Shown here piece by piece: positions 331-61,448 of a stretch of DNA of 64,000 bases. Both the position numbers and the translations under genes were made by a program. The DNA is from Thermoplasmata archaeon (GTDB lineage: Archaea; Thermoplasmatota; SW-10-69-26; JACQPN01; JAJPHT01), in assembly GCA_034667685.1 (NCBI GenBank), contig JAXDQU010000011.1, forward strand, positions 14,230 to 78,229, in the 5' to 3' direction. Position 1 is the first letter of the stretch. Each line of letters starts with the position of its first letter. Below the pieces are notes generated by a model. The model did not search any database. It was not told where the DNA came from and saw only the letters and a program-made list of their open reading frames with translations.

Positions 331-1420
331 TGGCCGTCCAGTCGAGGACCTTCTTGATGACCTGCGGGCCATCGAGCTTGTAGGCGACCTCGACTTCCTG
401 GGGCGCGAAGACGTGCGTGACGATGCGCTCCGTCTCGTGGGGCCAGCGCGCCCGGAACTCGGCGAGCCTGCGCATGGCGACCTCGAAGTGCCTGCGGCCG
501 CTGTTGACGCTGCCGAACATCGCCTGGTTCTGGAGCACCATCTGCCGCATGATGTCGTCGCCGGGCACCGCGAAGGGAGGCCTCTCTTCCGGAACGCCCA
601 GCATCGCCATGACGCCGTTCCCCGCGAGCGTCTGCACGCAGTCGAACGCCACCTCCGGGACGCCCGTCGCCTCGATGACGAGGTCGAAGCCGCCCACCTC
701 CCGCGCGAGGTCGGCCACCTTCGTCTCGCGCGCGTCGACGTGCTTCACGCCCAGCGATGATAGCAGCTTGGCCGGCGCGGAGTCCTCGGGCTCGCGGTCC
801 ATCGCCCAGACGTCCATGCCCTCGGAGCGCAGCAGGAAGCAGCCCACGGTGCCCAGGCTTCCGGTGCCCGCGAGGAGCGCGCGCTTGCCTCGGAACTCGT
901 CCTCCTGCTCGAACCACGGGATGCGCCGCTGGATGCGCCGCGCCTCCTCGTACGCCTTCACGACGATGGAGAGCGGCTCGGTGAGCACGGCGAGGCTGCC
1001 GATGCCGGCGGGCGCCTTCACGAGCGTGGCGGGGTCGTCGGCCCACAGGTCGCGGTAGAAGCCGTCGAGCCCCTTGATGCCGTGCTCCCGATATCCCTCG
1101 GTGGGGCAGAAGTCGGCGTGGCGCAGGCACGCGACGCACTGGCCGCAGCCGTGGCGCACCAGCGGCACGACGCGGTCGCCCGGCGCGAGGCCCGATCCCT
1201 CCGGCGCCTCGACGACCTCGCCCAGGCACTCGTGGCCCAGCACCAGCTCGTCCCGGCCTTCGGGGAACGCGCCGTGCGCGCCTGATAGCACCTCGTCGTC
1301 CGTGCCGTCGAGCCCGGCGTAGAGCGTGCGCGCGAGCGCCTGCACCTCCCGCCGCGCGGGCTCGGGGCGCTCCACGAGGCGCGGCGCGTGCTCCCCCTTG
1401 CGCAGGACGATCGCGCGCAT
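302..1420 (-). CDS. gdh: Zn-dependent glucose 1-dehydrogenase (MDR family)
   Basis: GLDGTD, LGHECLGEV, CGQC...C...C Zn motifs, GTGSLG, GSVNS; located next to a GH15 gene. Confidence 0.8.
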   Translation of the reverse strand: MRAIVLRKGEHAPRLVERPEPARREVQALARTLYAGLDGTDDEVLSGAHGAFPEGRDELVLGHECLGEVVEAPEGSGLAPGDRVVPLVRHGCGQCVACLRHADFCPTEGYREHGIKGLDGFYRDLWADDPATLVKAPAGIGSLAVLTEPLSIVVKAYEEARRIQRRIPWFEQEDEFRGKRALLAGTGSLGTVGCFLLRSEGMDVWAMDREPEDSAPAKLLSSLGVKHVDARETKVADLAREVGGFDLVIEATGVPEVAFDCVQTLAGNGVMAMLGVPEERPPFAVPGDDIMRQMVLQNQAMFGSVNSGRRHFEVAMRRLAEFRARWPHETERIVTHVFAPQEVEVAYKLDGPQVIKKVLDWTAKGVSGDGAP

Positions 1421-3097
1421 TCAGGCCACCTCCATCCGCCGGCGCCGCTCGGCCGGCTCGTGCGCGCCGCGCTCGCGCGTGGAGGAGGGATCGACGAGCT
1501 GCCAGGCCGCGCTCACCAGCGCCGCGTGCGTGAACGCCTGCGGGAAGTTGCCCAGGTGGCGCTTGGCGACCGGGTCATACTCCTCGGCGTAGAGCCCGAG
1601 CGGCGAGGCGAGCGCCGCGAGCCGGTCGAACGCCTCCTGCGCCTCGTCGCGCCGGCCCGCGAGCGCCAGCGCCTCCACGAGCCAGAACGAGCACGCCAGG
1701 AACGCGCCCTCCTTGCCTTCGAGCCCGTCGGCCTTCGCGTACCGCAGCAGGAAGCCGCCCTGCGAGAGCTGCTCGCGCGCCTCGCGCAACGTCGCCTGAT
1801 AGCGCGCGTCGTCGGGGCGCACGAACCCGACGATCGCGAGGCGCAGGTTCGATGCGTCGGCCGCGCGGTCGCCGTACGCCTGCGTGAACGCGCCGGTCTC
1901 CGGGTCGACGCCCTGCTCCATCACGTCGCGCCGGATCTCCCCGCGCGTCGCGTCCCACCGCGCCAAGGGCGCCGGCAGCCCGTAGTCCTCCGCGGTCCTG
2001 ATCGCGCGGTCCACCGCGACCCACGCCATGACCTTGGAGTACGTGAGCTGCCGCTTGCCGTGGGGAAGCTCCCAGATGCCGTGGTCCGGCTCGCGCCAGC
2101 GCGCGCAGCAGCGCTCCACCAGCTCGACGACGTGCGGCCACAGGTGGCGCCGCTCCGGCCTGCGCAGGCCTTGCCAGAGGTGCAGGCACTCCATGACGTG
2201 GCCGTAGGCGTCGAGCTGGAACTGGTCGACGGCGTCGTTGCCGAAGCGCACCGGCCGCGAGTCCGCGTAGCCGGGCAGGTCCGCGTGCGTCTCGCGCGGC
2301 GCGGGCGCCCCCTCGACCGTGTAGAGCACGCGCAGGTCCTTCGCCGGCGCGGCGGCCACGGTGCGCAGCAGCCAGCCGGCGAGCGCGCGCGCCTCGTCGC
2401 GGTAGCCCGACGAGACGAACGCATCCATGCAGAAGCCCGTGTCGCGCAGCCACGCGAACCGGTAGTCCCAGTTGCGCACGCCGCCGAGCGTCTCGGGGAG
2501 GCTCGTGGTGGGCGCGGCGACCATCGCCCCCGTCGGCGCGTAGCGCATGGCCTTGAGCGCGAGCAGGCTGCGCACGACGAGGTCGCGGTGCGCGCCGTCG
2601 TACTCGCAGCGCTCGGCCCAGCCGCGCCACGCCCGCAACGTCGCGTCCAGCGCGGCGCGCGCCTCGCCCGCATCCGGCGCCGCGGGCCCGCCCTCGCTCC
2701 ACGCGAAGGCCGCGGCCTCGCCCGCGCGCAGCCGGACCTCGCGGCGCCATCCGCCCGGCATCGTGGCCTCGATCGTCGCCTCGCCATCCAGGCACTCGGC
2801 GAGCCGGACGACGCTCGTGCGCTCGGCGGGATAGGGCATGAAGTCGTGGACGCGCGCCGCGCCGGCCGCCCCGCGCCACGCGGTCACGAGGACGTTGGTC
2901 TGCGCCGCGTAGCCGAACGACGTGACCTGGGCGTCACGCATCGCGAGCGACATCTCGTGGGGACCGCCCAGGATGGCATCGCAGGCCGGCATGCTATCAA
3001 AGCGCGGCGCGCACCACCACACGACGCGGCCGCCGGGCGCCACGAGCGCGGCGCTCAGGCAGTCGCCGATCAGGCCGTGGTCCTCGATGGGCCTCAC
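1421..3097 (-). CDS. Glycoside hydrolase family 15 (trehalase/glucoamylase-like)
   Basis: IEDHGLIGD, AAPTTSLPE, RNWDYRFAWLRD, GIWE, LGNFPQAFTH; GTG start at 3097 overlaps the upstream TGA. Confidence 0.9.
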   Translation of the reverse strand: MRPIEDHGLIGDCLSAALVAPGGRVVWWCAPRFDSMPACDAILGGPHEMSLAMRDAQVTSFGYAAQTNVLVTAWRGAAGAARVHDFMPYPAERTSVVRLAECLDGEATIEATMPGGWRREVRLRAGEAAAFAWSEGGPAAPDAGEARAALDATLRAWRGWAERCEYDGAHRDLVVRSLLALKAMRYAPTGAMVAAPTTSLPETLGGVRNWDYRFAWLRDTGFCMDAFVSSGYRDEARALAGWLLRTVAAAPAKDLRVLYTVEGAPAPRETHADLPGYADSRPVRFGNDAVDQFQLDAYGHVMECLHLWQGLRRPERRHLWPHVVELVERCCARWREPDHGIWELPHGKRQLTYSKVMAWVAVDRAIRTAEDYGLPAPLARWDATRGEIRRDVMEQGVDPETGAFTQAYGDRAADASNLRLAIVGFVRPDDARYQATLREAREQLSQGGFLLRYAKADGLEGKEGAFLACSFWLVEALALAGRRDEAQEAFDRLAALASPLGLYAEEYDPVAKRHLGNFPQAFTHAALVSAAWQLVDPSSTRERGAHEPAERRRRMEVA

Positions 3098-3801
3098 GCG
3101 CGCCTCACGGGCTCCTGCGGCGCCGCCCGCGCGGCCCAGCGGACCATCTGCGCGACGAACGCCACGTAGGCTGTGCCCATCTCCTCGCCCTCGGGGCCCG
3201 GCACCGCGGACTCGCCCCAGTCGGTGAGCCCGCCGCTCCAGTGCGGCGCGAGGTCGCCCGCGTACGCGACGACGCGCCCCTCGCCCACGCCGCCCGCCAC
3301 GAGCAGCGGCGCGCCGCGCACGTTCACGCGCGGGCCCTCGGGCGTGAGCGCGGCCTCGCGCGCCTCCAGCACGACGTGCGCCGCGGGCTTCGGCGTCAGC
3401 TGGTTGTGGCCGCAGAGCACGGGCGGGCGCGACCAGTCGAGCGCGCCGAGGATCGCGTGCGGGCCGATGGGCACCGGGTAACAGCCGGCCACGCTGGCGT
3501 GCCTGTCGTCGCCGTCGAGCATCGTGACCGGCAGCGCCTCCGCGAGCGGGCTGCGCGCGTAGCCGCCGCGGCCGAACGAGCGCCAGCCCCCGACCATGAC
3601 GAGGCCAAGGCCCGACGCGACGTCGCGGACCAGGGCGCGCGCCGCGTCGACGCCGAGCCGCTCCGCCCCGTAGTCCGAGAGCATCACCGCATCGCAGCCG
3701 CGCCAGCGGGGCTCGGGCTCGACCTCGATGCCGGCAGCGGCGAACGCGCCGAGCAGGTACTTCGTGGAGCACTTGTCCCCTTCGAGATAGCAAATCCTCA
3801 A
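3094..3801 (-). CDS. Class I glutamine amidotransferase-like protein (DUF1355-like)
   Basis: GLGLVMVGGWRSF, LAEALPV, GEGRVVAY, DLAPHW motifs. Confidence 0.7.
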   Translation of the reverse strand: MRICYLEGDKCSTKYLLGAFAAAGIEVEPEPRWRGCDAVMLSDYGAERLGVDAARALVRDVASGLGLVMVGGWRSFGRGGYARSPLAEALPVTMLDGDDRHASVAGCYPVPIGPHAILGALDWSRPPVLCGHNQLTPKPAAHVVLEAREAALTPEGPRVNVRGAPLLVAGGVGEGRVVAYAGDLAPHWSGGLTDWGESAVPGPEGEEMGTAYVAFVAQMVRWAARAAPQEPVRRA

Positions 3802-6084: not shown

Positions 6085-8175
6085 TCATTGCGGCCACGTG
6101 AATGCCTGGCTGACGACCTGCGCGCCGTCGGCGCCAGTGGCGCGGAACTCGACCTGCGAGCCCGTCGGCGCGTGATAGCTCGCCGTCCAGTCGCCGTAGC
6201 TCTGGAGCGCGAGCGGCTGCCACGCGCCCCCGCTGATCCGCGCGTCGACGGCCTTCACGGTCTCGCTCGCGGCGACGTGGACCTGGATCCACCACTCGTT
6301 GCCGTTGCGCGGCGTGAACGTCGCGGTCATGTTGCCGGAGGGTGGGGGAGAGGGCGAAGGCGAGGGTGAGGGCGGGGGGGTGCCGCCGCTGCACGTGGTG
6401 GCCGTCGCGCCGGTCCAGAGATAGCATCCCGAGACGGCCGTGGCGCCCGTCGTGTCGGTCGCGGTGAACTGGAGCACCGTGCCGCTGGGCGCGTGGATCG
6501 ACTTCGCCCACGTGCCCCACGAGTCCTTCGGGAGGTCCACGGGCGCGCCGCCGTTCAGGCTCGCGCTCACCGACGCGATGGTGTGGCCGCTGGCGGAGGC
6601 GCTCGTCTCGACCCACCACTCGTTGCCCTTCGGGCCGAACGTCGCGGTGAAGTTGCCGCCGCTGGGCGGGGGCGGAGGCGGCGGCGTGGTCGTGCCGTTG
6701 CCGGCGAGCGCGACCTTCTCGTGCGGCGGGCTGATGGCGCCCCAGCCCGGGAACATGGCGTTGAAGCCCTGCGCGCCGGTCCAGACCTGCACCTGGCCGC
6801 CGCCCGACGAGACGCCGACGGCCATGGCGAGCTTGCCGTCGCCGAAGAGGCTCGCGGCCTCGGCGGTGCTGCGCGTGGGGGTAGGCGTCGCGAGGAAGCC
6901 CTTCGTCGCGCCGGTGGCGAGGTCGAAGAGCCATAGGCCCGTCTGCCCGCTGCTGGCGCCCGCGGCGACGACCTGCTGGGTGCCGTCGCCCACGACGTCA
7001 GCCACCATGATATCCTTGTCCGAGACCTGCGCGTTGAGGTCGCGGTGCCACTTCTCGTGGCCCGTCGCGTCGAAGAGCGCCACGTGGCCCGGGCCCACCT
7101 GCTCGAAGTTGCCCGGCTTGTGGCCGATGGTGTTCCAGTCGCCCACGAGCACGGCCTTCGCGCCGTTGACCGAGACGACGACGGGGCGCGTGTGCGAGAG
7201 CGGCGCGGCCCACGTGGGCTGCGCGCGCCAGAGCAGGTGCCCCCACGAGTCGAGCGCGAACCACATCGCATGGTCGTTGCCGAACGTCGTGCTATCGTGC
7301 GCATCGCGCGCCGCGAAGAGCACGTCGGGGTGGCCGTCGCCGTTGACGTCGGAGAGCGTGGGCTGCATCGGGATGCTGGCGGGCCACACGTAGCCCGCGG
7401 CGTTGAACGTCCACTTCGTGCCGCCCGTCGCGCCGTTGAGCGCGTAGACGGTGCCCGCGTCGTTGGCCATCACGACCTCGGGCTTGCCGTCGCCGTCGAG
7501 GTCGCCCACGCTGGGGGTCGCGTGGCCGCTCGGCAGCGCCTGGGCCCAGAGCGTGGAGCCGTCGGGGCGCACGGCGAAGATGCCCGTCTCCTCGGTCGCC
7601 ACCACGACGTCCAGCTTGCCGTCGCCGTTCAAGTCCGCGACCGTCGGGCTCGCGTCCATCGTCGTGAACGACTGGTACTGGTTGTAGCGGTGCTCCCAGA
7701 GCTTGGTGAAGACGAGCTGCGAGGCGCTGCTCGCCGCGGGGTCGATCTCGAAGCGCGCGACGACCGCGGCGGTGTCCGCCAGGACGACGTCGAGCTTCCC
7801 GTTGCCGTCCAGGTCCGTCACGACGGGCGCGTTGATCGGTCCGCTCACGCCCTCGAAGCTGTAGCACGTCGAGGCGCACCCGGCGTTTCCCGGGGCGAAC
7901 CTGGCGAGCGTCGCGCCGGTCGCCGGGTCGAGGACGTAGACGTTGCCGTCGTCGCTCTGCGCCACGACCTCCAGCTTGCCGTCCCCGCGGAAGTCGGCGA
8001 GCGCCATCTGCAGGCCGTTGAACGGCGCGGCCCCCGGCGCGATCGTCCGCGTGAGCGTGGCGATGGCGGCGGCGACGGGCGCGAGCAGGAGGATGGCGAC
8101 GAGGATGGGAGCCAGGCGGCCGGCTTGCACGGAGGCGCGGTCGGTCGCCACGCGCGAAGGCGGTTCTGGCCGCAT
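6085..8175 (-). CDS. Secreted FG-GAP/VCBS-repeat beta-propeller protein with two C-terminal expansin/CBM63-like domains
   Basis: Signal peptide, repeated DLxGDGKxD/E motifs, Pro-rich linkers, duplicated ATF.P..GNEWW domain. True start may lie slightly downstream. Confidence 0.75.
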   Translation of the reverse strand: MRPEPPSRVATDRASVQAGRLAPILVAILLLAPVAAAIATLTRTIAPGAAPFNGLQMALADFRGDGKLEVVAQSDDGNVYVLDPATGATLARFAPGNAGCASTCYSFEGVSGPINAPVVTDLDGNGKLDVVLADTAAVVARFEIDPAASSASQLVFTKLWEHRYNQYQSFTTMDASPTVADLNGDGKLDVVVATEETGIFAVRPDGSTLWAQALPSGHATPSVGDLDGDGKPEVVMANDAGTVYALNGATGGTKWTFNAAGYVWPASIPMQPTLSDVNGDGHPDVLFAARDAHDSTTFGNDHAMWFALDSWGHLLWRAQPTWAAPLSHTRPVVVSVNGAKAVLVGDWNTIGHKPGNFEQVGPGHVALFDATGHEKWHRDLNAQVSDKDIMVADVVGDGTQQVVAAGASSGQTGLWLFDLATGATKGFLATPTPTRSTAEAASLFGDGKLAMAVGVSSGGGQVQVWTGAQGFNAMFPGWGAISPPHEKVALAGNGTTTPPPPPPPSGGNFTATFGPKGNEWWVETSASASGHTIASVSASLNGGAPVDLPKDSWGTWAKSIHAPSGTVLQFTATDTTGATAVSGCYLWTGATATTCSGGTPPPSPSPSPSPPPSGNMTATFTPRNGNEWWIQVHVAASETVKAVDARISGGAWQPLALQSYGDWTASYHAPTGSQVEFRATGADGAQVVSQAFTWPQ

Positions 8176-12344: not shown

Positions 12345-12959
12345 ATGCCGTCCTACTTCACGAAGGACACGCTCGCGTTCCTCAAGGAGCTGGAGAAGCA
12401 CAACAACAAGGCGTGGTTCGAGAAGAACAAGCCGCGCTACGAGGAGCACGTGAAGGAGCCCAGCGCGCGCTTCGCGGCGGCCGTCGGGACGAAGCTCAAG
12501 CTGGAGCCCAACGTCATGCGCATCTACCGCGACACGCGCTTCTCGCGCGACAAGTCGCCCTACAAGACCAACGTCGGCATCGGCTTCGGCCACGGCAAGG
12601 CGGTCACGGCGCCCGGCTACTTCCTGCACGCGGGCCCGGGCGAGAGCGCCATCCACGCCGGCATCTGGCACCCCGAGCCGCCGGTGCTATCACGCATCCG
12701 CGAAGGGATCGTCGCCAAGCCCGCGGCGTGGAAGAAGGCGCGCGCCGTCGGGCTCTCCGAGGACGAGGAGAAGCTCAAGCGCCCGCCACGCGGCGTCCCG
12801 CTCGACCACCCGTACGCCGAGGACCTGAAACGCAAGTCCTTCACCGCCGGCATCGCGTTCAAGGACGCTGATATCACCGCGCCCGACTTTGACAAGACGT
12901 TCCTCGCCGCGGCGAAGAAGCTCGCGCCCCTCAACGACTTCCTCTCGAAGGTGGTCTGA
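12345..12959 (+). CDS. DUF2461 family protein
   Basis: FLKELEKHNNKAWF, RIYRDTRFSRDKSPYKT, LKRPPRG...DHP...DLKRKSF. Confidence 0.9.
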   Translation: MPSYFTKDTLAFLKELEKHNNKAWFEKNKPRYEEHVKEPSARFAAAVGTKLKLEPNVMRIYRDTRFSRDKSPYKTNVGIGFGHGKAVTAPGYFLHAGPGESAIHAGIWHPEPPVLSRIREGIVAKPAAWKKARAVGLSEDEEKLKRPPRGVPLDHPYAEDLKRKSFTAGIAFKDADITAPDFDKTFLAAAKKLAPLNDFLSKVV

Positions 12960-14722: not shown

Positions 14723-15313
14723 GTGCGCGCGCCCCTCCATCCTGACCTCGCCGTCGTCCTCGCGGCTTCGGTCGCCGTCGTTGTTCTCCTCGCCGTCTCG
14801 CTCGGGACCGCGCCGGCCGCCATCGCCGCGAAGGACGCGCCGCTCCACGATGGTCAGCGCGTGCGCCTCGACGCGCGCGTGCTCGCCGCCAGCGGATCGG
14901 CGCGCGGGCTGCGGCTCGTGGTCGCCGACGACACGGCCCGCCTCACCGTGCTCGGGCAGGCGGGCCTCGCGCAGCCGCAGCCGGGCGACCGCGTGCGCCT
15001 CGTGGGGCTCGTGGCGCAGCTCAGCGACGGGCTTGGGCTCTCCGCCGAGACGATCACGGTGACGCAGCGCGCCGCCACGCAGCCGATCGACCCCGCGCAG
15101 GTGGCCCGGCAGCCGCAGCTCTACGAGGGCGCGCGCGTGCTGCTCCGCGGCGAGGCGCGGGACGGCGCGTTGGCGGGCGGCGGCGCGCGCATGCTGCTAT
15201 CAGGCCTCGCGCCTCCCGCGCCGGGAAGCTGGCTCGCGGCGGGGACGGTCTTCTATGACACGGCGCACGCGGCGTACGAGCTGCGGGTGGACGCGTGGAG
15301 CCGGCCCTCCTGA
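14723..15313 (+). CDS. Membrane-anchored OB-fold protein
   Basis: N-terminal TM, then GQRVRL..RV...VADDTA..PGDRVRLVG pattern; a second similar repeat follows. Confidence 0.55.
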   Translation: MRAPLHPDLAVVLAASVAVVVLLAVSLGTAPAAIAAKDAPLHDGQRVRLDARVLAASGSARGLRLVVADDTARLTVLGQAGLAQPQPGDRVRLVGLVAQLSDGLGLSAETITVTQRAATQPIDPAQVARQPQLYEGARVLLRGEARDGALAGGGARMLLSGLAPPAPGSWLAAGTVFYDTAHAAYELRVDAWSRPS

Positions 15314-21231: not shown

Positions 21232-22490
21232 GGCGATCCGAGCGCGTCGCGGATGGGCTGACGGCGCAGCCGCGCCAGGGCCCACCGCGACGCGCCCACG
21301 CCCGCCGCCACCGCCAGCGCCAGGATCGCCAGCGCCACGAGCCACGAGGGGGCGGGCGGAGGGACCTTGAGCGCCGCGGCGCGGAACGCGAGCGCCAGGA
21401 GCCATGATAGCAGCGTGGCGAACGCCACGCCCACGACCCCGCCCGCCAGGCCCAGCCACAGGCCGAGGCCCTGGTAGACGCGGCCGAACGCCTGGTCGGG
21501 GATGCCGATGGCGCGCAGCGTGGCGAGCGTCGCGCGGTCCTCGCGCACCTGCCGCGCGAGGGTGTGCGCGATCCACGCGCCGGTCATGAGCGTGAGCGAC
21601 GCGACGACGATCCACGCCGTGACGCGCACGCTGTCGAACACCGGCCCGAGATAGCTTTCCCGGAACGGCCCGGACGCGATCGCCACGAAGCCGCGCTGCT
21701 GCGCCGAGGCCACGAGCGCGTGCTGGTCGCCCGCCGCGAGCACGACGTTGGCCGGCGGGTTCGTGGCGAAGTAGCCCAGGAGGCGCGCCACGTCGCCGCG
21801 CGGCGCGTAGACGACGAGCCGGTCGATCATGCGGAACCCCGTCGCGTACGTGCCCACGAGCAGGCCGTGCGCGGAGACGAGCTGGTTGTTCTCGACGTGG
21901 CCGGCCGTCAAGTTGTAGATGCTGCTCCAGGCGAAGGAGCCGTCGTACACGGTGAGGTTCGCGCTGTGCACGAAGTCCTCGCCCGCGAAGATCGGCACGA
22001 CGGGCTCGCCGTCGGGCAGCGTGGGCAACGCGCCCTGACGCCCGAGCATGACGCCCCGCGAGACGTAGGCGTCGAGGTCGACGACCTGCGCGTCGGCGTC
22101 CGGGTCGATGCCCACGAGGATCGCCGCCGAGCGCGTCGCGTTCGCCGCGCCCGCCGCCGTCGTGAAGTCCGCGCCGTGGAGGAAGATCCCCTCCGATTCG
22201 AGCCGGGGCGCGAAGCGCGCTGAAGGATTGTCATAGCGCAGCCCGGTGAGCACGTCCTGGAGGTCGGTCATCGGCTCGCCGTCGCCCACGCCCGTCCGGG
22301 CGCGCGCGATGCGCACGTCGCCGCCCAGCGTCGTCGAGATCTCGCGCCCCACGCCGCCTTCGAGGCCGTCGACCGAGGCGAGGACGAGGAAGTAGGTCGC
22401 GGACGTGGCCGCGAGCAGGATCGCCAGCGCGACGTACGTGCGCTTCCGGTTCGCCCACTCGGCGCGCATGAGATCGCGGGCGACGGTCAT
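21228..22490 (-). CDS. ABC transporter permease, FtsX/LolC-like
   Basis: TM, large extracytoplasmic domain (LVGIDP), then 3 TM with ATLRAIG. Confidence 0.8.
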   Translation of the reverse strand: MTVARDLMRAEWANRKRTYVALAILLAATSATYFLVLASVDGLEGGVGREISTTLGGDVRIARARTGVGDGEPMTDLQDVLTGLRYDNPSARFAPRLESEGIFLHGADFTTAAGAANATRSAAILVGIDPDADAQVVDLDAYVSRGVMLGRQGALPTLPDGEPVVPIFAGEDFVHSANLTVYDGSFAWSSIYNLTAGHVENNQLVSAHGLLVGTYATGFRMIDRLVVYAPRGDVARLLGYFATNPPANVVLAAGDQHALVASAQQRGFVAIASGPFRESYLGPVFDSVRVTAWIVVASLTLMTGAWIAHTLARQVREDRATLATLRAIGIPDQAFGRVYQGLGLWLGLAGGVVGVAFATLLSWLLALAFRAAALKVPPPAPSWLVALAILALAVAAGVGASRWALARLRRQPIRDALGSP

Positions 22491-24571: not shown

Positions 24572-26148
24572 GGCCCGGCGAGGGTCGCCGCCAGGCGCAG
24601 CGACGAGCGGTAACGCCGCGGCGCCCCGCCGTCGTGCTCGACGAGGCCCAGGCCCCCGAGCCGGCGGAGGTGGTACGCGACGAGGCGCCGGGGGAGCCCG
24701 GTCCGCGCGATGATATCACCCTGGGTCAGGCCCTCCGGCGCGGCGCCCACGACCTCGGCGAGACGGCGGCGCGTGCCGGACTTGAGCTGCGCCTTCGCGC
24801 GCAACGTCTCCGGGTCGAGGGAGCGCCGGGCAGGCAGGTAGAGCAGGCGCCCCTCCACGCGACGCGAGACGATGAGCCGCTGCGCCTCCAGGACCGCGAG
24901 ATGGTGGCGCACGACGACGCGGGCGATGCCGGTCGCGCGCGAGACGTCCGCGGGACATTGGCCCGGCGAGTCGGAAAGAAGCGCGTGGATGCGGGCGCGG
25001 TTCGCGTTCGCCAGCGCGTCGGCCGGCGCGATGCGCGAGTAGAGCGGCACGAGCAGCGCGCGCGCCAGGAGCACGAGCGCCGCGAGGATCGCGCCGCCCA
25101 GGCCGATGCGCGCCGCGAGGGCCGCGGACGAGGCGGACGCGCCGGCCGCCGCGCGCGTCTCGTGATCGCCCACGCGCACGAGGGTCGCGTCGCCGCGCAC
25201 GCCCGAGGCGAGGGGCGCGCCCCCCAGCGCGTCGGTGGCCGGGGCGCCGGCGGAGGGAGAGCGCGTCGCGTCGAGGAGCAAGGCGCCTTCGAGGCGGATC
25301 GGCTGGTGGCGGAACGAGGTCTGGTTGCCGGCGTAGTCCAGCGTGCCGCTGGCGTCGGGCGAGGCGAGCGCGCCCTGGAGGTCGAGCTCCGCCTTCTCGG
25401 CGAGCAGCTCGGCGGGGCCGCTCCCCTGGAGCACGGACGCTCCGGTCAGGTTGAGCCAGGCGTGGCGGTCGACGCCCTGGTAGACGACGGGTGGGAGCGG
25501 CGCGACGGCGGGGTCGCGGCTCGTCGTCGCGTCGAGCGACTCGTTGCCGCGCGCGGTCTCGACGATGGCGGAGGCGCCCTTCAGGAAGAGGGTCACGCGG
25601 CCCGAGGCGAGAAGATGCGGCGACCCACCCAGGAGAGCCGGTCCCGCAACGAGCGCGCCGGTGGGCTCGTCGCGCCTGAAGGCGTCTTCGCCCGTGCATT
25701 CACGGCTGCAAAAACGCTCGCCAAGCGGGAGCGTGGCGAGGCGGCCCGACGCGTTCCCCTCGAGGCCGAGGCGGCCTCCCCCCGAGACGACGAGGATGAC
25801 GCGGCAATCCTCCTGGCACGCGAAGCTTCGGATCGTCGCGTTGGAGGTCTGGATGGGGTCGTCGGCCGGGCCGCTCTGGGGTCCTTCCTCCACGGGCCCT
25901 GCTTGGGCTCCGACGATGCTGCGCGTGATCCGGTGCCCGTCCACGAGGCTCGCGTGCAGCGCGAGCGGCGCCCCGGCGCGCACGAAGGGGGTCAGGTTGA
26001 GCACGCCATCGGCCGTCGACAACACGACGTGGCCCGAGAGATCGATGCCGATCGCGGGATCGAGCGAGCCCCGGATCGGCGAGGCGCCCGCGAAGGCCGC
26101 CACGAGAAGCGTCGTGGCGAGCGCGGCGTAGACGCCTCCGCGGAGCAT
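24532..26148 (-). CDS. Membrane-anchored regulator 1: signal peptide, ectodomain, TM, double winged-HTH (COG3398-like)
   Basis: Signal peptide; ectodomain with CQEDC; TM then PLYSRI...NRARIHALLSDSPG...VVRHHLAVLE...LVAYHLRRL. Confidence 0.8.
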   Translation of the reverse strand: MLRGGVYAALATTLLVAAFAGASPIRGSLDPAIGIDLSGHVVLSTADGVLNLTPFVRAGAPLALHASLVDGHRITRSIVGAQAGPVEEGPQSGPADDPIQTSNATIRSFACQEDCRVILVVSGGGRLGLEGNASGRLATLPLGERFCSRECTGEDAFRRDEPTGALVAGPALLGGSPHLLASGRVTLFLKGASAIVETARGNESLDATTSRDPAVAPLPPVVYQGVDRHAWLNLTGASVLQGSGPAELLAEKAELDLQGALASPDASGTLDYAGNQTSFRHQPIRLEGALLLDATRSPSAGAPATDALGGAPLASGVRGDATLVRVGDHETRAAAGASASSAALAARIGLGGAILAALVLLARALLVPLYSRIAPADALANANRARIHALLSDSPGQCPADVSRATGIARVVVRHHLAVLEAQRLIVSRRVEGRLLYLPARRSLDPETLRAKAQLKSGTRRRLAEVVGAAPEGLTQGDIIARTGLPRRLVAYHLRRLGGLGLVEHDGGAPRRYRSSLRLAATLAGPQGSPAGAAPAGP

Positions 26149-27410: not shown

Positions 27411-28064
27411 TCACTTCGCCGGGATCATCTTCAGCGCGTGCGTCCACTTGCCCGTGCGGAAGCCGTGCACGATCCAGACGAGCGCGATCGCCTCGAGCAG
27501 GCGCGCGGCCTCGATCCCGCCCAGGTCGATGATATCACGCCAGCCCAGCTCGCGCAGCAGCTCCTCGGCGCGCCGCTTCGCCGCCTCGTCGTCGCCCGCG
27601 ACGAACATGGTCGGATCGCCGAACGCGCCCGGGTCGTCCATCTGCGCATGGCTCACGACGTTGAGCGTCTTGACGACCTTCGCGCCCGGCGCCCAGCGCT
27701 GCACGCGCTCGCCCGCGCTGTCGTTCCCCGAGACGGCCAGGAGGGGAGGAAGGCCACCCTCGCGGTACGTCAACGGGTTCGTCACGTCGATGAGGAGCTT
27801 GCCGCGCAGCCGCTCCGGCCCCGCCAGGCGCACCGCGTTCTCCGTGCCCGACCAGTCGGTCGCCAGCACGACGACCTCGCCGAACGTCGCGGCCTCGGCG
27901 TTGGTGCCCGCCTTCGCCCCGGTCTCCTTCGTCCACGCCACGACATCCTCGCGCCCCGGCTCGCGCGTCCCCATCGTCACCGGATGGCCGAGCTTCGCGA
28001 ACGCGCCCGCGAGCTGCTTGCCCACATCGCCCGAGCCGATCACGCCGATCTTGAGCTTCGACAT
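27411..28064 (-). CDS. NADPH-dependent F420 reductase-like dinucleotide-binding oxidoreductase
   Basis: IGVIGSGDVG, IDVTNPL, SAGE, VVKTLN, DLGGIEAAR. Confidence 0.85.
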   Translation of the reverse strand: MSKLKIGVIGSGDVGKQLAGAFAKLGHPVTMGTREPGREDVVAWTKETGAKAGTNAEAATFGEVVVLATDWSGTENAVRLAGPERLRGKLLIDVTNPLTYREGGLPPLLAVSGNDSAGERVQRWAPGAKVVKTLNVVSHAQMDDPGAFGDPTMFVAGDDEAAKRRAEELLRELGWRDIIDLGGIEAARLLEAIALVWIVHGFRTGKWTHALKMIPAK

Positions 28065-37713: not shown

Positions 37714-38580
37714 TTATGGCGCATTCTTCGAATTCGTGACCTTCCGGATGACGAGCTGCAACGGATCGAAGTAGCGGTCCGCGACGCGCTCCTTCATCGG
37801 GATGATGCCGTTGTCCGTGATGTGGATGTGCTCGGGGCACACCTCGGTGCAGCACTTCGTGATGTTGCACAGGCCGACGCCTGCTTCACGGCGCAGGAGC
37901 GGCACGCGGTCCGCGGCGTCCGCGGGGTGCATCTCCAGGCTGGCGATGCGGATGGTGAACCGAGGGCCGTAGAAGCCGCCGTCCTTCGTGGGGTCGGTGC
38001 CCTTGCCCTGGTCGCGCAGCACGTGGCAGACGTCCTGGCAGAGGAAGCACTCGATGCACTTCCGGAACTCCTGGACGCGGTCCACGTCGATCTGCTTCAT
38101 GTTGAACTCGCCCTTGGCGGCCTCTTCGGCCGTCCGCGCGCGGGGCGTGAAGGGCTGGATGTTCTGGTTGACGCGGTAGTTCCACGAGACGTCGGTGACG
38201 AGGTCCTTCTTGCGCGGGAACGTCTTGACGGGCTCGACGGTGACGGGGCCTTCGGGCAGCTCCTCGACGCGCGTCATGCACATCAGGCGCGGGACGCCGT
38301 TGATCTCGGCGCTGCACGATCCGCACTTGCCGGCCTTGCAGTTCCAGCGGCACGCGAGCGTCGGGTCCTCGGTCGCCTGGATGCGGTGGACGGCGTCGAG
38401 GACGACGTTGCCTTCCTCGACTTGGAGGTGGAAGTCCTGCCACTGGCTCTCGCCGGTGGCGCCCTCGCCCCGGCGCACGCGCAGGTGGAGCGGGTACTTC
38501 TTCGACTCCTGGATCTTGACGGGGCCCTTCTGGGCCGTGAGCTGCTGGACCGTGATATCAACCTTCGGCGCGTCGGTCAC
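37714..38580 (-). CDS. sdhB: Succinate dehydrogenase/fumarate reductase Fe-S subunit
   Basis: CRWNCKAGKCGSC, CIECFLCQDVC, CNITKCCTEVCP. Confidence 0.93.
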   Translation of the reverse strand: MTDAPKVDITVQQLTAQKGPVKIQESKKYPLHLRVRRGEGATGESQWQDFHLQVEEGNVVLDAVHRIQATEDPTLACRWNCKAGKCGSCSAEINGVPRLMCMTRVEELPEGPVTVEPVKTFPRKKDLVTDVSWNYRVNQNIQPFTPRARTAEEAAKGEFNMKQIDVDRVQEFRKCIECFLCQDVCHVLRDQGKGTDPTKDGGFYGPRFTIRIASLEMHPADAADRVPLLRREAGVGLCNITKCCTEVCPEHIHITDNGIIPMKERVADRYFDPLQLVIRKVTNSKNAP

Positions 38581-40437
38581 TCACGCCACCCCCTTCGTGC
38601 TGATGTCCTCGGCCTTGCTATCAAGGATCTGCTTGAGCTCGGCCGGGATCGCCGGGATCGGCTCGACGGCGATCTCCATCTTGCCGTTGACGTTGCGGGC
38701 GACGATGTTGCGGCCGCCCCAGTTCTTCTCGTCGCTCTCGATGAAGTCGCCGCGCGTGTGCCCGCCGCGCGACTCCTCGCGGGTCAGCGCGCTACGGCAC
38801 GAGGCCTCGCACGCGATGACCATGAACTGCAGGTCCATGGCGACGTGCCAGCCCGGGTTGAACGCGGTGGTGCCGGGCGCCTTGACGGCGGCGGCGCGCT
38901 TCTTGATCGTCTGCAGCTCCTCGATGGCTTCGAGCAGGTCGTCCTTGAAGCGGACCATGCCGGCCTTGTTCTGCATGACGACCTGCAGGTCCTCCCACAC
39001 CTTGTAGGGCGACTCGCCCGCGCCTGAGCCGACGAACGACAGGTAATGATCGACCGCGGCCTCGACCTCGCGGTCGTCGACGCGGCCCGGCGGCGCGGTC
39101 TTGGCGAACTTCGCCGCGTGCTCGCCGGCGCGCGCGCCGAACACGAGCAGGTCGGTGAGCGAGTTGCCGCCCAGGCGGTTGGAGCCGTGCAGCCCGGCCG
39201 CCGCCTCGCCCGCGGCGTAAAGCCCCTGGACCTTGGGCGTCTGCTGCGTCTCGGGGTCCACGCGGATGCCGCCCATCGTGTAGTGCATCGTGGGGCCGAC
39301 CTCCATCGGGACCTTGGTGATGTCGACGTTCGCCAATTCCTTGAACTGGTGGTACATCGAGGGGAGCTTCCGCTTCACGTACTCGGGGTCGCGCCAGCTG
39401 ATATCAAGATAGACGCCGCCGCGCGGGGTGCCGCGGCCGCTCTTGACCTCGGCCATGATGGCGCGCGCCACGATGTCGCGGGGAAGGAGCTCGGGCGGGC
39501 GGCGCGCGGTGCTCTGGCCCGCGGTGATGCTGCCGTCCTTGAGCTGGCCCTGCTGCTCGACCCACGTGTTGGCCTCGGCCTCGGTCTCCGCGAACTCGCC
39601 CTTGTAGAGGTCGGGCACGTAGCGGAACATGAAGCGCTCGCCGTTCGTGTTCGTCAGGCGGCCGCCCTCGCCGCGCACGCCCTCGGTGACGAGGATGCCG
39701 CGCACGCTCGGGGGCCAGACCATGCCGGTGGGGTGGAACTGGATGAACTCCATGTCCTGGAGGTCCGCGCCGGCGAGCCACGCGAGCGCGTAGCCGTCGC
39801 CCGTGTATTCCCATGAGTTGCTGGTGACCTGGAACGCCTTGCCGAAGCCGCCCGTCGCAAGGACGAACGCCTTGGCCTTGAAGAGGTGGAACGCGCCCGT
39901 GTCGCGCTCGTAGGCAAGGGCCGCGACGACTCGGTTGCCGTCCTTGAACAGGCGGACCACGGTGGTCTCCATGAAGACGTCGAGCCCGCTGTGGACGCCC
40001 TTGTCCTGGAGCGTGCGGATGATCTCCAAGCCGGTCCTGTCGCCGACGTGCGCGAGGCGCGGGTACGTGTGGCCGCCGAATGCGCGCTGGCTGATCCAGC
40101 CGTCCTTCGTGCGGTCGAACACTGCGCCCCACTCCTCCAGCTCGCGCACGCGCTGCGGCGCCTCCTTGGCGTGCAGCTCGGCCATGCGCCAGGAGTTGAG
40201 GTAGCGGCCGCCCTTCATCGTGTCGCGGAAGTGGACCTTCCAGTTGTCGCGGCCGTCGACGTTGCCCATCGCAGCCGCCGCGCCGCCCTCCGCCATCACG
40301 GTGTGGGCCTTGCCCAGGAGCGACTTGCAGAGCACGGCGGTCTTCTGGCCCTGCCGGGCGGACTCGATCGCGGCGCGGAGGCCCGCGCCGCCCGCGCCGA
40401 TGACAACGACGTCGAACTCGTGGCTGGCGAACTTCAC
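38581..40437 (-). CDS. sdhA: Succinate dehydrogenase/fumarate reductase flavoprotein
   Basis: GAGGAG, KAHTVMAEGG, QFHPTG, HGSNRLGGNSL, ESRGGH; GTG start at 40437. Confidence 0.95.
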   Translation of the reverse strand: MKFASHEFDVVVIGAGGAGLRAAIESARQGQKTAVLCKSLLGKAHTVMAEGGAAAAMGNVDGRDNWKVHFRDTMKGGRYLNSWRMAELHAKEAPQRVRELEEWGAVFDRTKDGWISQRAFGGHTYPRLAHVGDRTGLEIIRTLQDKGVHSGLDVFMETTVVRLFKDGNRVVAALAYERDTGAFHLFKAKAFVLATGGFGKAFQVTSNSWEYTGDGYALAWLAGADLQDMEFIQFHPTGMVWPPSVRGILVTEGVRGEGGRLTNTNGERFMFRYVPDLYKGEFAETEAEANTWVEQQGQLKDGSITAGQSTARRPPELLPRDIVARAIMAEVKSGRGTPRGGVYLDISWRDPEYVKRKLPSMYHQFKELANVDITKVPMEVGPTMHYTMGGIRVDPETQQTPKVQGLYAAGEAAAGLHGSNRLGGNSLTDLLVFGARAGEHAAKFAKTAPPGRVDDREVEAAVDHYLSFVGSGAGESPYKVWEDLQVVMQNKAGMVRFKDDLLEAIEELQTIKKRAAAVKAPGTTAFNPGWHVAMDLQFMVIACEASCRSALTREESRGGHTRGDFIESDEKNWGGRNIVARNVNGKMEIAVEPIPAIPAELKQILDSKAEDISTKGVA

Positions 40438-41550: not shown

Positions 41551-41666
41551 TCACGTCCAAGAGCGCGCCATTGGGCGATCGTTCCTAGAAACCCGAAAAC
41601 AATTCTCTACAGAGAACCGGGGAGGCGAGCGCCTGGAATGTTATCTCCGGGTTACTCTGATATCAC

Positions 41667-42065
41667 TTAGGCCGGCCGGTACTTGCTTGCGCAGCCGACG
41701 CTGACGTCCGTGGCGCGAAGGCGCGTGCCGCCGGCGTCCGTGACGAGCACGCCGGTCACGACCACGTTCTTGCCCTCGATCGTGCCGCCGGCCTCCTGGT
41801 CGGGAAGGGGCTTGCGCGGGTCCCACTCGACGGGGAGCTGGGCGTGGCCGTCTTCGATCAGGAACGTGATGGGCGAGCCGGTGCGGTTGACGCTCCCCGG
41901 CACCACGCTCGCCTTGAGCTGGACCTCCTTGCCCGCGAAGGCGGCGGGGTTGGCGACGACGTCGCCCACGCCCTGGTAGCCCTCGGGCCGGCTGCCGGCG
42001 TACGCGAGCGCGCCGCCCGCGACGACCAGGAGCAGCAGGATGGCCACCTTGGCGCCCTTGTTCAC
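41667..42065 (-). CDS. ccmE: CcmE-like heme chaperone, CxxxY type
   Basis: N-terminal TM, OB-like core (VVPGSV, EGKNVVVTG), C-terminal GCASKY. Confidence 0.7.
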   Translation of the reverse strand: MNKGAKVAILLLLVVAGGALAYAGSRPEGYQGVGDVVANPAAFAGKEVQLKASVVPGSVNRTGSPITFLIEDGHAQLPVEWDPRKPLPDQEAGGTIEGKNVVVTGVLVTDAGGTRLRATDVSVGCASKYRPA

Positions 42066-45862: not shown

Positions 45863-46076
45863 CGGCAAGCTCCCCGCCAATCCCAATGATATCTTCTCCG
45901 CAACGAGGCGGCCGGCCAGCCGAGCCACCACCCCCCGGGGGTAGCAGCAGGCCGGGTGCACGCGCGAGGTGTTGATGCCTCGCCGTGTCATGGCATGGTG
46001 AGGGCGCGGGGATGGTACCCCGCTGGGTCGGTGCGGTTACGACCCGGCAAGCCATCCTCGCCCTGCCCTCTTCTTC

Positions 46077-53872: not shown

Positions 53873-54655
53873 TCAGCGGAGCTCGGCGACCATCCCCCCG
53901 TCCACGACGAGCGTGTGCCCCGTGACGTAGGGGCTGCCCGCCACGAGCGAGAGGATCGCGTCCGCCATCTCCTCCGGGCTGGCGAGGCGGCGCATCGGGA
54001 TGTGGCGCACGATCGCCTTCTGGAACTCGGGGTCGAGGATGTGGCGCTCCGGCCCGAAGCCCGTCTCGGTCCAGCCGGGCGCCACGCCATTGACGCGCAC
54101 GTGCGGCGCGTACATCAGCGCGGCCTGGCGCGTGAAGTGCAGCAGCGCGGCTTTTGACAGCGAGTAGAGCGGCGCATCGGTGAGCGCGTACATGCCCGCG
54201 ACCGAGGCCACGTTCACGACGCAGCCGCCCTTGCGCGCCACCATGCCCCGCGCGAGGCGCCAGGTCAGCTCGTAGGGCGCGCGCAGGTTGACGTTCATGA
54301 TATCATCCCAGCGCTCGAGGTGCGAGCCGAAGTCGCCGCCCTGCGTGCGCGGGTCGAGCGCCTTCTCCATCATGCCCGCGTTGTTGACGAGCGCGTCCAC
54401 GTGCCCCCAGTGCGCCTCCGCGGCCTCGGCGAACGCGGCGATGGCGGCCCGGTCGCGGAAGTCCGCCTGGAGCGCGACGGCGCCCATGCCGAGGTCTTTC
54501 ACCTGGCGCACGACGGCTTCGGCCTCGTCCCGCGAGCGCGCGTAGTGGACGACCACGCTCGCGCCCGCCCCCGCCAGGGCCAGCGCCGTCGCGCGCCCGA
54601 TGCCCGTGGACGCGCCCGTGACCACCGCGACCTTGCCGTGAAGTTCCCCGGCCAC
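53873..54655 (-). CDS. SDR family oxidoreductase
   Basis: TGASTGIG, NNAG, YSLSK, VNGVAPG, VDGG. Confidence 0.92.
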   Translation of the reverse strand: MAGELHGKVAVVTGASTGIGRATALALAGAGASVVVHYARSRDEAEAVVRQVKDLGMGAVALQADFRDRAAIAAFAEAAEAHWGHVDALVNNAGMMEKALDPRTQGGDFGSHLERWDDIMNVNLRAPYELTWRLARGMVARKGGCVVNVASVAGMYALTDAPLYSLSKAALLHFTRQAALMYAPHVRVNGVAPGWTETGFGPERHILDPEFQKAIVRHIPMRRLASPEEMADAILSLVAGSPYVTGHTLVVDGGMVAELR

Positions 54656-59077: not shown

Positions 59078-59220
59078 GGACGGCGCACGAAGCGCGCCTC
59101 GAACGTGGCTCGCGGGACGCCACGCGCGGCGATTCCCGGAGAAGCGTCTTATGTCGCCCGTCCATCTCGATGCCACATGCCGGAGGGCCGGAATCCTTAT
59201 GCCATCATGATGGCAACAGG

Positions 59221-59475: not shown

Positions 59476-59476
59476 C

Positions 59477-59821: not shown

Positions 59822-59851
59822 CTCCATATTCGAGACCGCCCATCGGAGCGC

Positions 59852-61111
59852 GTGCTCCTCCACGAGCCCTGCGCGAGGTGCGGCCGCACGCTGCTGGAGG
59901 TGCGGCAGGGCGCGACGCGCGACGCGATGCGCGGCAGCGCGCTCCTGTGCAGCGTGCCGGGCTGCCCGCTCGTGGAGAAGCTGCTCGGCTTCGCGGCGCC
60001 CAAGGTCAAGGGGCTGGAGCTCGTCGGGCCCTCGCCGCCCAGCGTGTTCGTGGGGCGCCATGGCTACCCCGACGTGAGCATGGGGCCGCTCCTGCCCGCG
60101 ACGCCGGAGAGCGCGCCCGCCCTCTCGGACTCGCCGGAGGACTGGAAGAAGCTCGACATCGCCACGATCCTCGCCATGCGCGCGCGGCTCTACCGGAGCA
60201 AGGCGCCCGTGCGCGTGGACGTGGCGCTCCCCACGCGCGCGCTGGAGGCCTCGCGCGAATTGGCGATGGCCGCGCGCCCCGTGGACGCCGAGGTCACGCT
60301 GAAGAAGCCGCTCAGGGTCACCGAGCCGGTCTCGCAGGTGGACGCCTTCGCCGCTCCGATGGGGCCCAGCGTGGACGTCGTCGACGCGCGATTGCTATCA
60401 AGCCCGAGCGTCCCGCGCAAGGTCGACGCGCTCGTCTCCGACGTGCACGCCGACGCCGCGACGGCGGTGAACGAGCTGTACGAAGGCGGCGTGCCCAACC
60501 ACCACATCCAGCGCCTGCTCTCCGTGGGCCTGCTGGGCGAAGGGGAGCGCCGGCGCCTCGTGCCCACGCGCTGGAGCATCACCGCCACCGACGACATCCT
60601 CGGCAAGCAGATGATCGAGGAGGTCAAGGAATTCGGCCTGCTCGACGCGCCGCTCGTGCACGCCGCGGACCTCTTCGGGAACTACTTCCAGGTGCTCCTG
60701 ATGCCGCGCGCCTGGAGCTACGAGATGATCGAGGCGTGGCACGAGGACGGGCGCTGGCAGCTCGGGCGCGACGCCGAGGGCTATCGCGGGCGCACGGCGT
60801 ACGTCGAGCAGGTCGCGGGCGCGTACTACGCCGCCCGGCTCTCGGTGCTGGAGCACCTCAAGCGCATCCGCCGCCAGGCCGCCGTGTTCGTGTACCGCGA
60901 GATCACCGACGAGTATTGGGCGCCGCTGGGCGTCTGGGTGATCCGCGAGGCGGTGAAGGCCGCGATGGACGCGAAGCCGCTCGTCTTCGGCGACCTGGAG
61001 AGCGCGCTGCGCCACGTGGCTCGGCGCTCGCGCTCGCAGGAGTGGACGAAGGTCGCCACCTCGCCGCGCGAGGCGCTGACGCAGCGGACGTTGCATGACT
61101 TCGACGCGTAG
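59852..61111 (+). CDS. nreA: Nre family archaeal DNA repair protein
   Basis: SPPSVFVGRHGYP, RRLVPTRWSITATDD, GAYYAARL, PLGVWVIRE; C-terminal PIP box QRTLHDF. Confidence 0.92.
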   Translation: MLLHEPCARCGRTLLEVRQGATRDAMRGSALLCSVPGCPLVEKLLGFAAPKVKGLELVGPSPPSVFVGRHGYPDVSMGPLLPATPESAPALSDSPEDWKKLDIATILAMRARLYRSKAPVRVDVALPTRALEASRELAMAARPVDAEVTLKKPLRVTEPVSQVDAFAAPMGPSVDVVDARLLSSPSVPRKVDALVSDVHADAATAVNELYEGGVPNHHIQRLLSVGLLGEGERRRLVPTRWSITATDDILGKQMIEEVKEFGLLDAPLVHAADLFGNYFQVLLMPRAWSYEMIEAWHEDGRWQLGRDAEGYRGRTAYVEQVAGAYYAARLSVLEHLKRIRRQAAVFVYREITDEYWAPLGVWVIREAVKAAMDAKPLVFGDLESALRHVARRSRSQEWTKVATSPREALTQRTLHDFDA

Positions 61112-61160
61112 CGAGGACGCAGCCAGAACCGACGAGCCGCCGGGCGGCCGAGCGCTCGGC

Positions 61161-61448
61161 ATGAAGGCCGCCACGATCGCCCTGATCCTGCTTGCTATCA
61201 CGCTCGTCGTCTCGCCCGCGCTCGCGCAGGGCGGCAACACCACCGTGAACAACAACTACAACAACCCGACGCCCTCGGGCGGGACGCCGCAAGTCAACGT
61301 GAACAACCCCACGCCCGTCGTCAACGTGAACAACCCGCAACAGTCCACCGCGGGCCTCGACACGACCACCATCCTCGTCATCGTCGTGGTCGCGGTGCTG
61401 GTCATCGCCCTCGTGGTCGGCCTGGCGGGCCGCAACCGCTGGTGGTAG
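61161..61448 (+). CDS. Small Asn-rich surface protein: signal peptide, NNP repeats, C-terminal TM
   Basis: SPALA-QGGNTTVNNNYNNP...VNVNNP x2...TM-RNRWW. Confidence 0.7.
   Translation: MKAATIALILLAITLVVSPALAQGGNTTVNNNYNNPTPSGGTPQVNVNNPTPVVNVNNPQQSTAGLDTTTILVIVVVAVLVIALVVGLAGRNRWW

Follow-up and report, generated by a model that had tools for sequence, protein, structure and literature searches.

In the genome of a Thermoplasmata archaeon (assembly GCA_034667685.1; 3,481,428 bases in 124 contigs, 99% complete, hereafter G000), a short DNA word, TGATATCA, and a variant changed in one half, TGCTATCA/TGATAGCA, recur in 707 copies, and this enrichment is restricted to a single genus of uncultured soil archaea. 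An earlier note on a 64,000-nt stretch of this genome (G000:C11:14230-78229, here called the window, whose positions serve as coordinates below) had listed copies of the word and proposed a genome-wide signal at the DNA level, analogous to HIP1, the highly iterated palindrome GCGATCGC that is described from cyanobacteria together with alternate HIPs (Elhai, 2015, PMC4390886; Xu et al., 2018, PMC5861425; Rodriguez-Cruz et al., 2026, PMC13756078; all three cited here from parts of their text). That proposal is supported, the word passing both a codon-preserving null model and a reading-frame test. Taken as a whole, the reading that we favor, i.e., a HIP1-kind iterated palindrome of one archaeal genus that is read and fixed in the way proposed below, stands in our estimate just short of an even chance. 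The window encodes archaeal marker proteins (Nre and the archaeal editing domain of threonyl-tRNA synthetase), and the sequencing runs that match it are soil and rhizosphere metagenomes, two of which cover most of the stretch.

Across G000, which has a G+C content of 71.1%, TGATATCA is found 378 times where base composition predicts 4.0 copies (94-fold) and a second-order Markov model (computed with the formula of Xu, 2018) predicts 2.0 (observed/expected ratio, O/E, of 192), and no other octamer is as over-represented relative to base composition. The variant adds 173 copies of TGCTATCA and 156 of TGATAGCA (329 together), each against ~9.9 by base composition, with Markov O/E of 45 and 39, respectively. 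The octamer TGATATCA alone accounts for 378 of the 745 GATATC hexamers and 378 of the 1097 ATAT strings of the genome. Within genes (3291 by open reading frame, or ORF, and codon-model calls, 84.6% of the genome being coding and G+C at third codon positions, GC3, reaching 95.9%), the excess survives a null model that preserves amino acids and codons by permuting synonymous codons within each gene (30 permutations): 301 genic copies of TGATATCA compare with a mean of 4.5 and a largest value of 10, and the sense-strand counts are 235 vs. 7.7 for TGCTATCA and 68 vs. 0.77 for TGATAGCA. This null is conservative, because the rare codons brought in by the word itself stay in it.

The same picture holds within the window, where G+C is near the ~72% first stated (68-75% per 4 kb). 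All 18 copies of TGMTAKCA that had been listed by eye were recovered, exactly at the positions given, and the guess that chance would yield less than one copy agrees with 100 dinucleotide-preserving shuffles (mean 0.39, largest 3, none reaching 18). Many one-mismatch copies had also been claimed, and 20 matches within one mismatch of TGATATCA are indeed present vs. 2.87 expected. Independent gene calls likewise place 17 of the 18 copies inside genes, the exception at 41658 lying just beyond a gene end. The six copies read as Leu-Ser (758, 1283, 12685, 15195, 21405, and 60393) are all xTG-CTA-TCA on the sense strand, in a genome where G/C-ending codons dominate as had been said (CTA makes up 0.6% of Leu codons and TCA 1.1% of Ser codons). 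Only the four-word consensus needs trimming: TGATATCA, TGCTATCA, and TGATAGCA are enriched, and TGCTAGCA, seen once in the window (15863), is excluded from the family, with 3 copies genome-wide vs. 7.8 expected by the second-order Markov model. Separately, CTAG palindromes are strongly avoided across G000 (GCTAGC 79 vs. 1161 expected, ACTAGT 8 vs. 192, CCTAGG 87 vs. 1161), and the TA dinucleotide stands at 0.43 of expectation.

Table 1. Copies of the word, its variant and near-cognate forms in the window, with codons and residues as read in the host gene.
Element	Position	Reading	Location or remark
Variant TGATAGCA	758..765	Sense strand TGCTATCA, CTG-CTA-TCA, Leu-Leu-Ser	
Variant TGATAGCA	1283..1290	Sense GTG-CTA-TCA, Val-Leu-Ser	
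Variant TGCTATCA	2992..2999	Sense TTT-GAT-AGC-A, Phe-Asp-Ser	
Near-cognate TGATATCC	7008..7015		Outer-position mismatch class, enriched genome-wide
Variant TGCTATCA	12685..12692	GTG-CTA-TCA, Val-Leu-Ser	
Perfect TGATATCA	12869..12876	GCT-GAT-ATC-A, Ala-Asp-Ile-Thr	
Variant TGCTATCA	15195..15202	CTG-CTA-TCA, Leu-Leu-Ser	
Variant TGATAGCA	21405..21412	Sense CTG-CTA-TCA, Leu-Leu-Ser	
Perfect TGATATCA	24711..24718	GGT-GAT-ATC-A, Gly-Asp-Ile-Ile	
Perfect TGATATCA	27530..27537	CGT-GAT-ATC-A, Arg-Asp-Ile-Ile	
Variant TGATAGCA	31972..31979	Sense TGC-TAT-CAC, Cys-Tyr-His	
Perfect TGATATCA	38553..38560	GTT-GAT-ATC-A, Val-Asp-Ile-Thr	Succinate dehydrogenase Fe-S subunit gene
Variant TGCTATCA	38616..38623	Sense CTT-GAT-AGC-A, Leu-Asp-Ser-Lys	SdhA-like gene
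Perfect TGATATCA	39399..39406	CTT-GAT-ATC-A, Leu-Asp-Ile-Ser	SdhA-like gene
Perfect TGATATCA	41658..41665		Spacer, 4 bases off the end of a minus-strand gene called at 41670-42065
Near-cognate TGATATCT	45887..45894		
Perfect TGATATCA	54298..54305	GAT-GAT-ATC-A, Asp-Asp-Ile-Met	
Variant TGCTATCA	60393..60400	TTG-CTA-TCA, Leu-Leu-Ser	Archaeal Nre gene
Variant TGCTATCA	61193..61200	CTT-GCT-ATC-A, Leu-Ala-Ile-Thr	Rare frame, 4/992 such contexts genome-wide
Near-cognate CGATATCA	63031..63038		

To describe how the word is written in genes, we use occupancy, i.e., the filled sites as a fraction of all places at which a given word is compatible with the protein sequence. For the perfect word, X-Asp-Ile-[Thr/Ile/Met/Asn/Lys/Ser/Arg] is written as TGATATCA at 292 of 633 places (46%). 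For the variant, occupancy is highest for Cys-Tyr-Gln/His as TGCTATCA (31/33, 94%), followed by [Leu/Val/Met]-Leu-Ser as xTG-CTA-TCA (196/1082, 18%) and X-Asp-Ser-[A..] as TGATAGCA (66/493). Where coding bars the perfect word, the nearest permitted form is written instead: Arg-Tyr-Gln/His becomes CGATATCA at 46 of 164 places, and [Leu/Val/Met]-Ile-Ser as the perfect word with ATA is filled at only 7 of 254. Stop and start codons are drawn in as well, with 32 genes terminating in TGA followed by TATCA and 26 genes preceded immediately at their start codon by TGATATC, often as TGA-TATC-ATG between two genes; this junction recurs (e.g., G000 C6:22782 and C6:23512), the palindrome there spanning the stop codon and the first base of the next start. 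Copies contain 200 of the 616 CTA codons and 209 of the 574 TCA codons of G000, so that the word explains about one third of each.

Could such a pattern arise from a signal in mRNA or translation (a codon pair, an RNase or small-RNA target), or as an artifact of amino-acid usage, repeats or assembly? In favor of this, 292 of the 301 genic copies of the perfect word share one frame, xxT-GAT-ATC-Axx. This bias follows, however, from the genetic code, because the other frames need either an in-frame TGA stop or ATA, a codon that hardly occurs (85 in the genome). The family as a whole is not confined to one frame, and the named refutation thus fails: it is written as Asp-Ile, Asp-Ser, Leu-Ser, and Cys/Arg-Tyr-Gln/His, as a TGA stop with the spacer behind it, and between genes, with the asymmetric variant enriched in three frames and on sense strands in both orientations. 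Copies extend, moreover, to spacers and to gene boundaries with their stop and start codons; the palindrome at the core is perfect; the codon-preserving null is off by 67-fold; all flanks are unique; and four other assemblies of the genus are enriched. We therefore consider an mRNA-level signal or artifact highly improbable. The word belongs to double-stranded DNA, not to protein or mRNA, and its copies are made by point substitution wherever the protein code leaves freedom, irrespective of frame and with stop codons, start codons and spacers included. One claim is not upheld, namely a path dependence read from the rarity of GCT-ATC-A (7/755) though the same 7-mer is common in other frames; measured against the baseline GCT-ATC-[CGT] (4/4263), this form is in fact ~10-fold enriched, with a wide error. 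As an observation in its own right, T-ending codons are particularly avoided ahead of A in G000 (GCT makes up 0.24% of Ala codons there vs. 1.3-2.3% ahead of other bases).

The specificity of the word can be read from the forms that are not written. Near misses permitted by coding are almost never filled, whether Val-Ser as TGGTATCA (1/894), X-Gly-Ile as TGGTATCA (0/643), Asp-Thr as TGATACCA (1/651), or Asp-Asn as TGATAACA (1/195). Among Tyr codons before CA, TAT is used in 271/375 cases after GC and 54/57 after GA, vs. 2/22 after GG, 4/11 after GT, 16/182 after AC, 8/211 after CC, and 17/253 after TC, and when His, Asn or Asp codons replace Tyr, the T-ending share after GC is 8.9, 6.1, and 4.3%, respectively. 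Together these counts show that G2/C7 and T4/A5 are required, that position 3 takes A or C, and that position 6 takes T or G. The outer T1/A8 pair is favored rather than required (TGC-TAY-CA 31/32, AGC 100/118, CGC 83/107, GGC 57/118). At Asp-Ile sites, T1 and T4 together reach an odds ratio of ~2000 relative to matched controls vs. 21 and 9 singly, an excess of uncertain size as the control count for the double state is 3, and recognition thus looks nearer all-or-none than additive. Beyond the octamer, flanks carry only a weak preference, for G/A before and C/T after (10-mer RTGATATCAY).

Along the genome, the copies are not a mobile repeat of the REP (repetitive extragenic palindrome) or MITE (miniature inverted-repeat transposable element) type, given their unique flanks and wide spread: the 38-mers around all 707 copies of the three words are unique, no two copies share a 15-base flank, the flank profile shows codon periodicity only, and copies occur in 513 of the 3291 genes and on each of the 80 contigs no shorter than 10 kb. 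Density depends on base composition, falling from 0.21-0.24 copies/kb in 20-kb bins above 71% G+C (106 bins) to 0.10 in bins of 66-69% (13 bins) and 0.017 below 66% (3 bins), and genes with GC3 below 0.90 have only 3 of 35 Asp-Ile opportunities filled vs. about half elsewhere. The low fill in such bins and genes points to foreign or atypical DNA that lacks the word. Among 60-kb regions, occupancy shows no heterogeneity beyond chance (p 0.06 and 0.21), it is flat along genes with no trend, and a copy within 300 bases leaves it unchanged (28/58 vs. 261/543); it is 36% in the top quartile of codon bias vs. 45-58% otherwise. Each possible site is thus filled independently of its neighbors. Spacing is Poisson-like (coefficient of variation of gaps 0.997; median 2812 vs. 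2841 for an exponential) and without periodicity, the only departure being a small deficit of gaps below 100 bases (5 vs. 14.3).

These distributions bear directly on the idea that the copies are selected binding sites for an abundant chromosomal protein (of chromatin, segregation or global regulation), each conferring a small fitness gain. Such a protein would account well for a preference that is graded like binding energy (8/8 above 7/8, whether mismatched at an outer position or carrying C3, and these above the hexamer) and for the weakly preferred 10-mer, and the 24-46 tandem winged-helix matches per genome, roughly paralogues, indicate that new DNA readers can arise in these archaea. HIP1 itself is reported to be under purifying selection, according to part of the text of Xu (2018, PMC5861425). 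A chromosomal protein would account poorly for Poisson spacing without periodicity, regional structure or saturation by local density, and for copies that are filled wherever coding permits rather than where function would place them. More generally, site autonomy and the lack of a spacing rule argue against density- or position-dependent roles, and fit a bias in transmission or repair. We thus hold selected binding sites to be unlikely.

To place the word in evolutionary context, we compared nine species genomes of the family, five from the window's genus and four from other genera. TGATATCA counts 378, 210, 141, 111, and 53 copies in the five, vs. 2, 3, 5, and 2 in the four sister genera. 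The variant divides the family in the same way, with 72, 229, and 63 copies in three species inside the genus vs. 5 and 10 in two of the sister genera. With 53 to 378 copies across five species and 2-5 in sister genera, the word is young. In G003, the species nearest to G000 (~80% DNA identity; 798 kb compared), TGATATCA is again the top octamer. A 364-kb sample of the sister genus G007 revealed no other iterated palindrome. The share of TGATATCA among TGATATCA plus [C/G]GACATCA is 0.56 in G000, 0.33 in G003, and 0.125 in the G007 sample, the last value being inflated as its contigs were picked for holding five TGATATCA hits. Within the genus, G002 carries more of the variant (229) than of the perfect word (141), the reverse of G000 (329 vs. 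378), which may reflect a shift in preference between species. Outside the family, G030 of the same phylum holds 215 copies of TGATATCA in 3.3 Mb vs. 17 of a reversed control word, which is a poor control since it contains CTAG-like strings.

Alignment of G000 and G003 shows how copies come and go. Most G000 copies align gap-free to unremarkable codons in G003, where TGATATCA is most often paired with CGACATCA, the same Asp-Ile in its usual codons, and Asp-Val or Asp-Leu partners are also frequent. In aligned blocks, 10 of 62 G000 copies of TGATATCA are the word in G003, and 10 of 25 G003 copies are the word in G000; where Asp-Ile is kept in both species, the word is present in G003 at 6 of the 23 places that carry it in G000 vs. 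1 of the 44 that do not. Some copies are therefore older than the species split, and most are species-specific. With only 10 of 62 copies common to the nearest species, and with sister genera managing without the word, this turnover also speaks against selected binding sites. Amino-acid conservation under the word gives a weak trend only, with residues retained at 23/49 word-bearing vs. 44/74 other Asp-Ile sites in G003 and at 5/20 vs. 12/28 in G007.

The youth of the word, its density differing up to 7-fold between species, and gains relative to G003 that are mostly C-to-T or G-to-A (the partner CGACATCA in 7 and 2 cases for the two orientations) could all be produced by a context-dependent mutational hot spot, e.g., site-specific deamination, whose product accumulates without any reader. 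Yet two different contexts are changed (CGA to TGA and GACA to GATA), Leu-Ser sites also need G/C to A, and every change depends on the presence of the rest of the word. The single-step intermediates are barely enriched under the codon null (TGACATCA 34 vs. 29, CGATATCA 91 vs. 37), and rare T- and A-ending codons are retained at shared sites despite a GC3 of 96%. A hot spot is, accordingly, very unlikely.

What might read the word? Its features recall the site of a type II enzyme, being an 8-base palindrome with near all-or-none recognition and a symmetric amino/keto (M/K) degenerate position, and type II restriction-modification sites with M/K degeneracy exist, e.g., GTMKAC. Position 3 takes exactly the two bases that have an exocyclic amino group, and is also the base modified by GATATC adenine methylases; methylases of this type may also methylate cytosine at N4, a point for which our literature search gave no confirmation. 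These likenesses suit a methylation-linked repair ratchet (Elhai's model for HIP), in which a methyltransferase acts on TGMTAKCA or its GMTAKC core, methyl-dependent nicking or mismatch repair settles replication errors in favor of the site-completing strand, and the sites themselves are functionless. Filling is indeed site-autonomous, and one-off copies deviate mainly at the outer positions as they do for HIP1 (Elhai, 2015, PMC4390886, from the part of the text available).

Gene content does not bear this out, and the link to methylation suggested in the earlier note finds no support there. Among the families searched, no methyltransferase tracks the genus: a PF01555 methylase (C106) and a C5 methylase (C63, PF00145) are present across the order, and the target-recognition stretch of the latter shows no genus-specific change when four genus orthologues are compared with three outgroups (G008, G009, and G010). 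A search with PF02384 gave no separation of the genus from its sisters either. D12-class adenine methylases (PF02086) were not found in the four other genomes of the genus, and the one borderline match of G000 lies inside a DUF1156 protein. A scan for the amino-methyltransferase signature over gene calls and all six-frame ORFs returned only five candidates, two of which are THUMP/UPF0020 RNA methylases. The repair side of the ratchet fares similarly. Vsr (PF03852) has no match in G000, the genome with the densest copies, or in G001, and one weak match below the family cut-off in G004; in G002 and G003, Vsr matches adjoin extra C5 methylases. MutS_V matches are weak (28-35 bits) and occur in all nine family genomes, NucS is family-wide, no EcoRV-type nuclease (PF09233) exceeds the cut-off in any of five genomes, and a canonical MutS/MutL/MutH set was not found in the lineage among the genomes searched. 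On balance, we rate the ratchet as fairly unlikely.

Some of the genes met in this search deserve separate mention. A 443-aa methyltransferase-like gene of G000 (C97 3115-4443, locus L096) has a motif I before SPPY and is followed by a 329-aa ORF without a Pfam match; among 14 related genomes it has no close relative, only weak partial matches of at most 50% identity, and it is thus present in G000 only. The DUF1156 methylase-like protein (1055 aa) adjoins an SNF2 helicase with a NOV_C domain (1134 aa; G000:C118, L100 3270-10171), a pair that looks like an acquired defense-type island; within the first 20 kb of C118, GC is 62.9% and the word does not occur. In the window, three large proteins (511-687 aa; 24535-26148, 31698-33230, and 50853-52913, all on the minus strand) carry C-terminal tandem winged-helix domains of the ArsR/MarR/IclR type, and a query with one of them returned 46 matches for G000 and, for four relatives, 24-44, so that a large protein family has expanded throughout this archaeal family.

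Returning to our favored reading, the word is very probably read by a two-fold symmetric protein of enzyme-like specificity, and alleles that bear it are preferentially fixed, site by site. What the data show is a force on the finished double-stranded word, one site at a time, in the DNA native to one genus, the word being limited to the native high-GC part of the genome. As to the agent, it is possible, with chances somewhat below even, that a predicted protein which arose within the genus reads TGMTAKCA and is rewriting synonymous sites and some Val/Leu-to-Ile sites throughout the native genome by a site-autonomous bias in repair, gene conversion or DNA exchange. The concrete route that we prefer, still more tentatively, is that this bias operates when DNA is exchanged, or repaired by recombination, between genome copies or cells, with the word serving as a "self" tag, as for uptake sequences and as now proposed for HIP1. 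It is tempting to draw the parallel with the uptake sequences of Pasteurellaceae (USS) and Neisseriaceae (DUS), which are likewise short core-genome words, missing from foreign islands, surrounded by enriched one-off variants and split into lineage-specific "dialects," and for which drive, rather than a function of each copy, can explain accumulation.

Several points weigh against this reading. Among the gene-content candidates searched, no reader protein was found, and none separates the genus from its sisters. Unlike the hosts of USS and DUS, the five genomes searched lack ComEC (PF03772) and DprA (PF02481) (0/5), a search that covered bacterial-type uptake machinery only. Its palindromic form sets the word apart from known uptake sequences, none of which is palindromic to our knowledge, and we know of no uptake sequence for any archaeon, nor did literature searches return one. 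The gene calls of G000, made by a simple procedure, are rough and miss some low-GC genes, and the sister genomes are incomplete assemblies (72-100% complete). Finally, selection for a binding function and repair-based drive both fit the same statistics, and the self-tag, ratchet and binding-site readings are not firmly separated by the data.

Set beside known systems, the word resembles HIP1 and the alternate HIPs most closely. It shares with them an octameric palindrome at ~100-200-fold over Markov expectation (15-300-fold is reported for HIP1 in the available text of the sources cited above), spread by substitution rather than insertion, presence in several genic frames as well as between genes, enriched one-off copies, and a lineage-wide distribution. 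It differs from HIP1 in its archaeal host and restriction to a single genus, in being an A+T-rich word in a 71% GC genome that is written with codons otherwise used at 0.3-8%, in its symmetric degenerate position (M/K), in its density (~1 per 5 kb vs. ~1 per kb as reported for HIP1) and Poisson spacing (that of HIP1 being reported as quasi-periodic), and in that no matching lineage-specific methyltransferase was found among the families searched. Dcm/Vsr very-short-patch (VSP) repair at CCWGG in E. coli offers another parallel, as a site-by-site repair bias that enriches a recognition site; here, however, no Vsr was found in G000, VSP repair pushes one position as opposed to at least six, and the pushed bases are A/T, not C. 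Type II restriction-modification sites, for their part, are usually avoided in the host, unlike this enriched word, for which the search gave no matching enzyme gene.

Since the 1990s, highly iterated palindromes have awaited an explanation, and in the literature searched they are described only in cyanobacteria, with no description of such an iterated palindrome in archaea. The phenomenon is now shown in an archaeon, running against very strong GC pressure (GC3 96%). All three current ideas on HIPs are constrained by gene content, as no canonical MutS/MutL/MutH set, no Vsr (in G000), no ComEC or DprA, and no methyltransferase that tracks the word was found in the genomes searched. If our reading is true, this would be a young, still expanding HIP, the first in Archaea, with word-free sister genera as natural controls. 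Owing to the word's youth, comparative genomics on complete genomes could realistically name its reader. In practical terms, the word marks native vs. foreign DNA in these genomes, and provides a sharp taxon marker for binning.

Among the genes of the window that hold copies, the SdhA-like flavoprotein (38584-40437) has mostly bacterial best matches (54-63% identity), together with two archaeal assemblies, which suggests, from sequence similarity, a bacterial-type enzyme or an old transfer.

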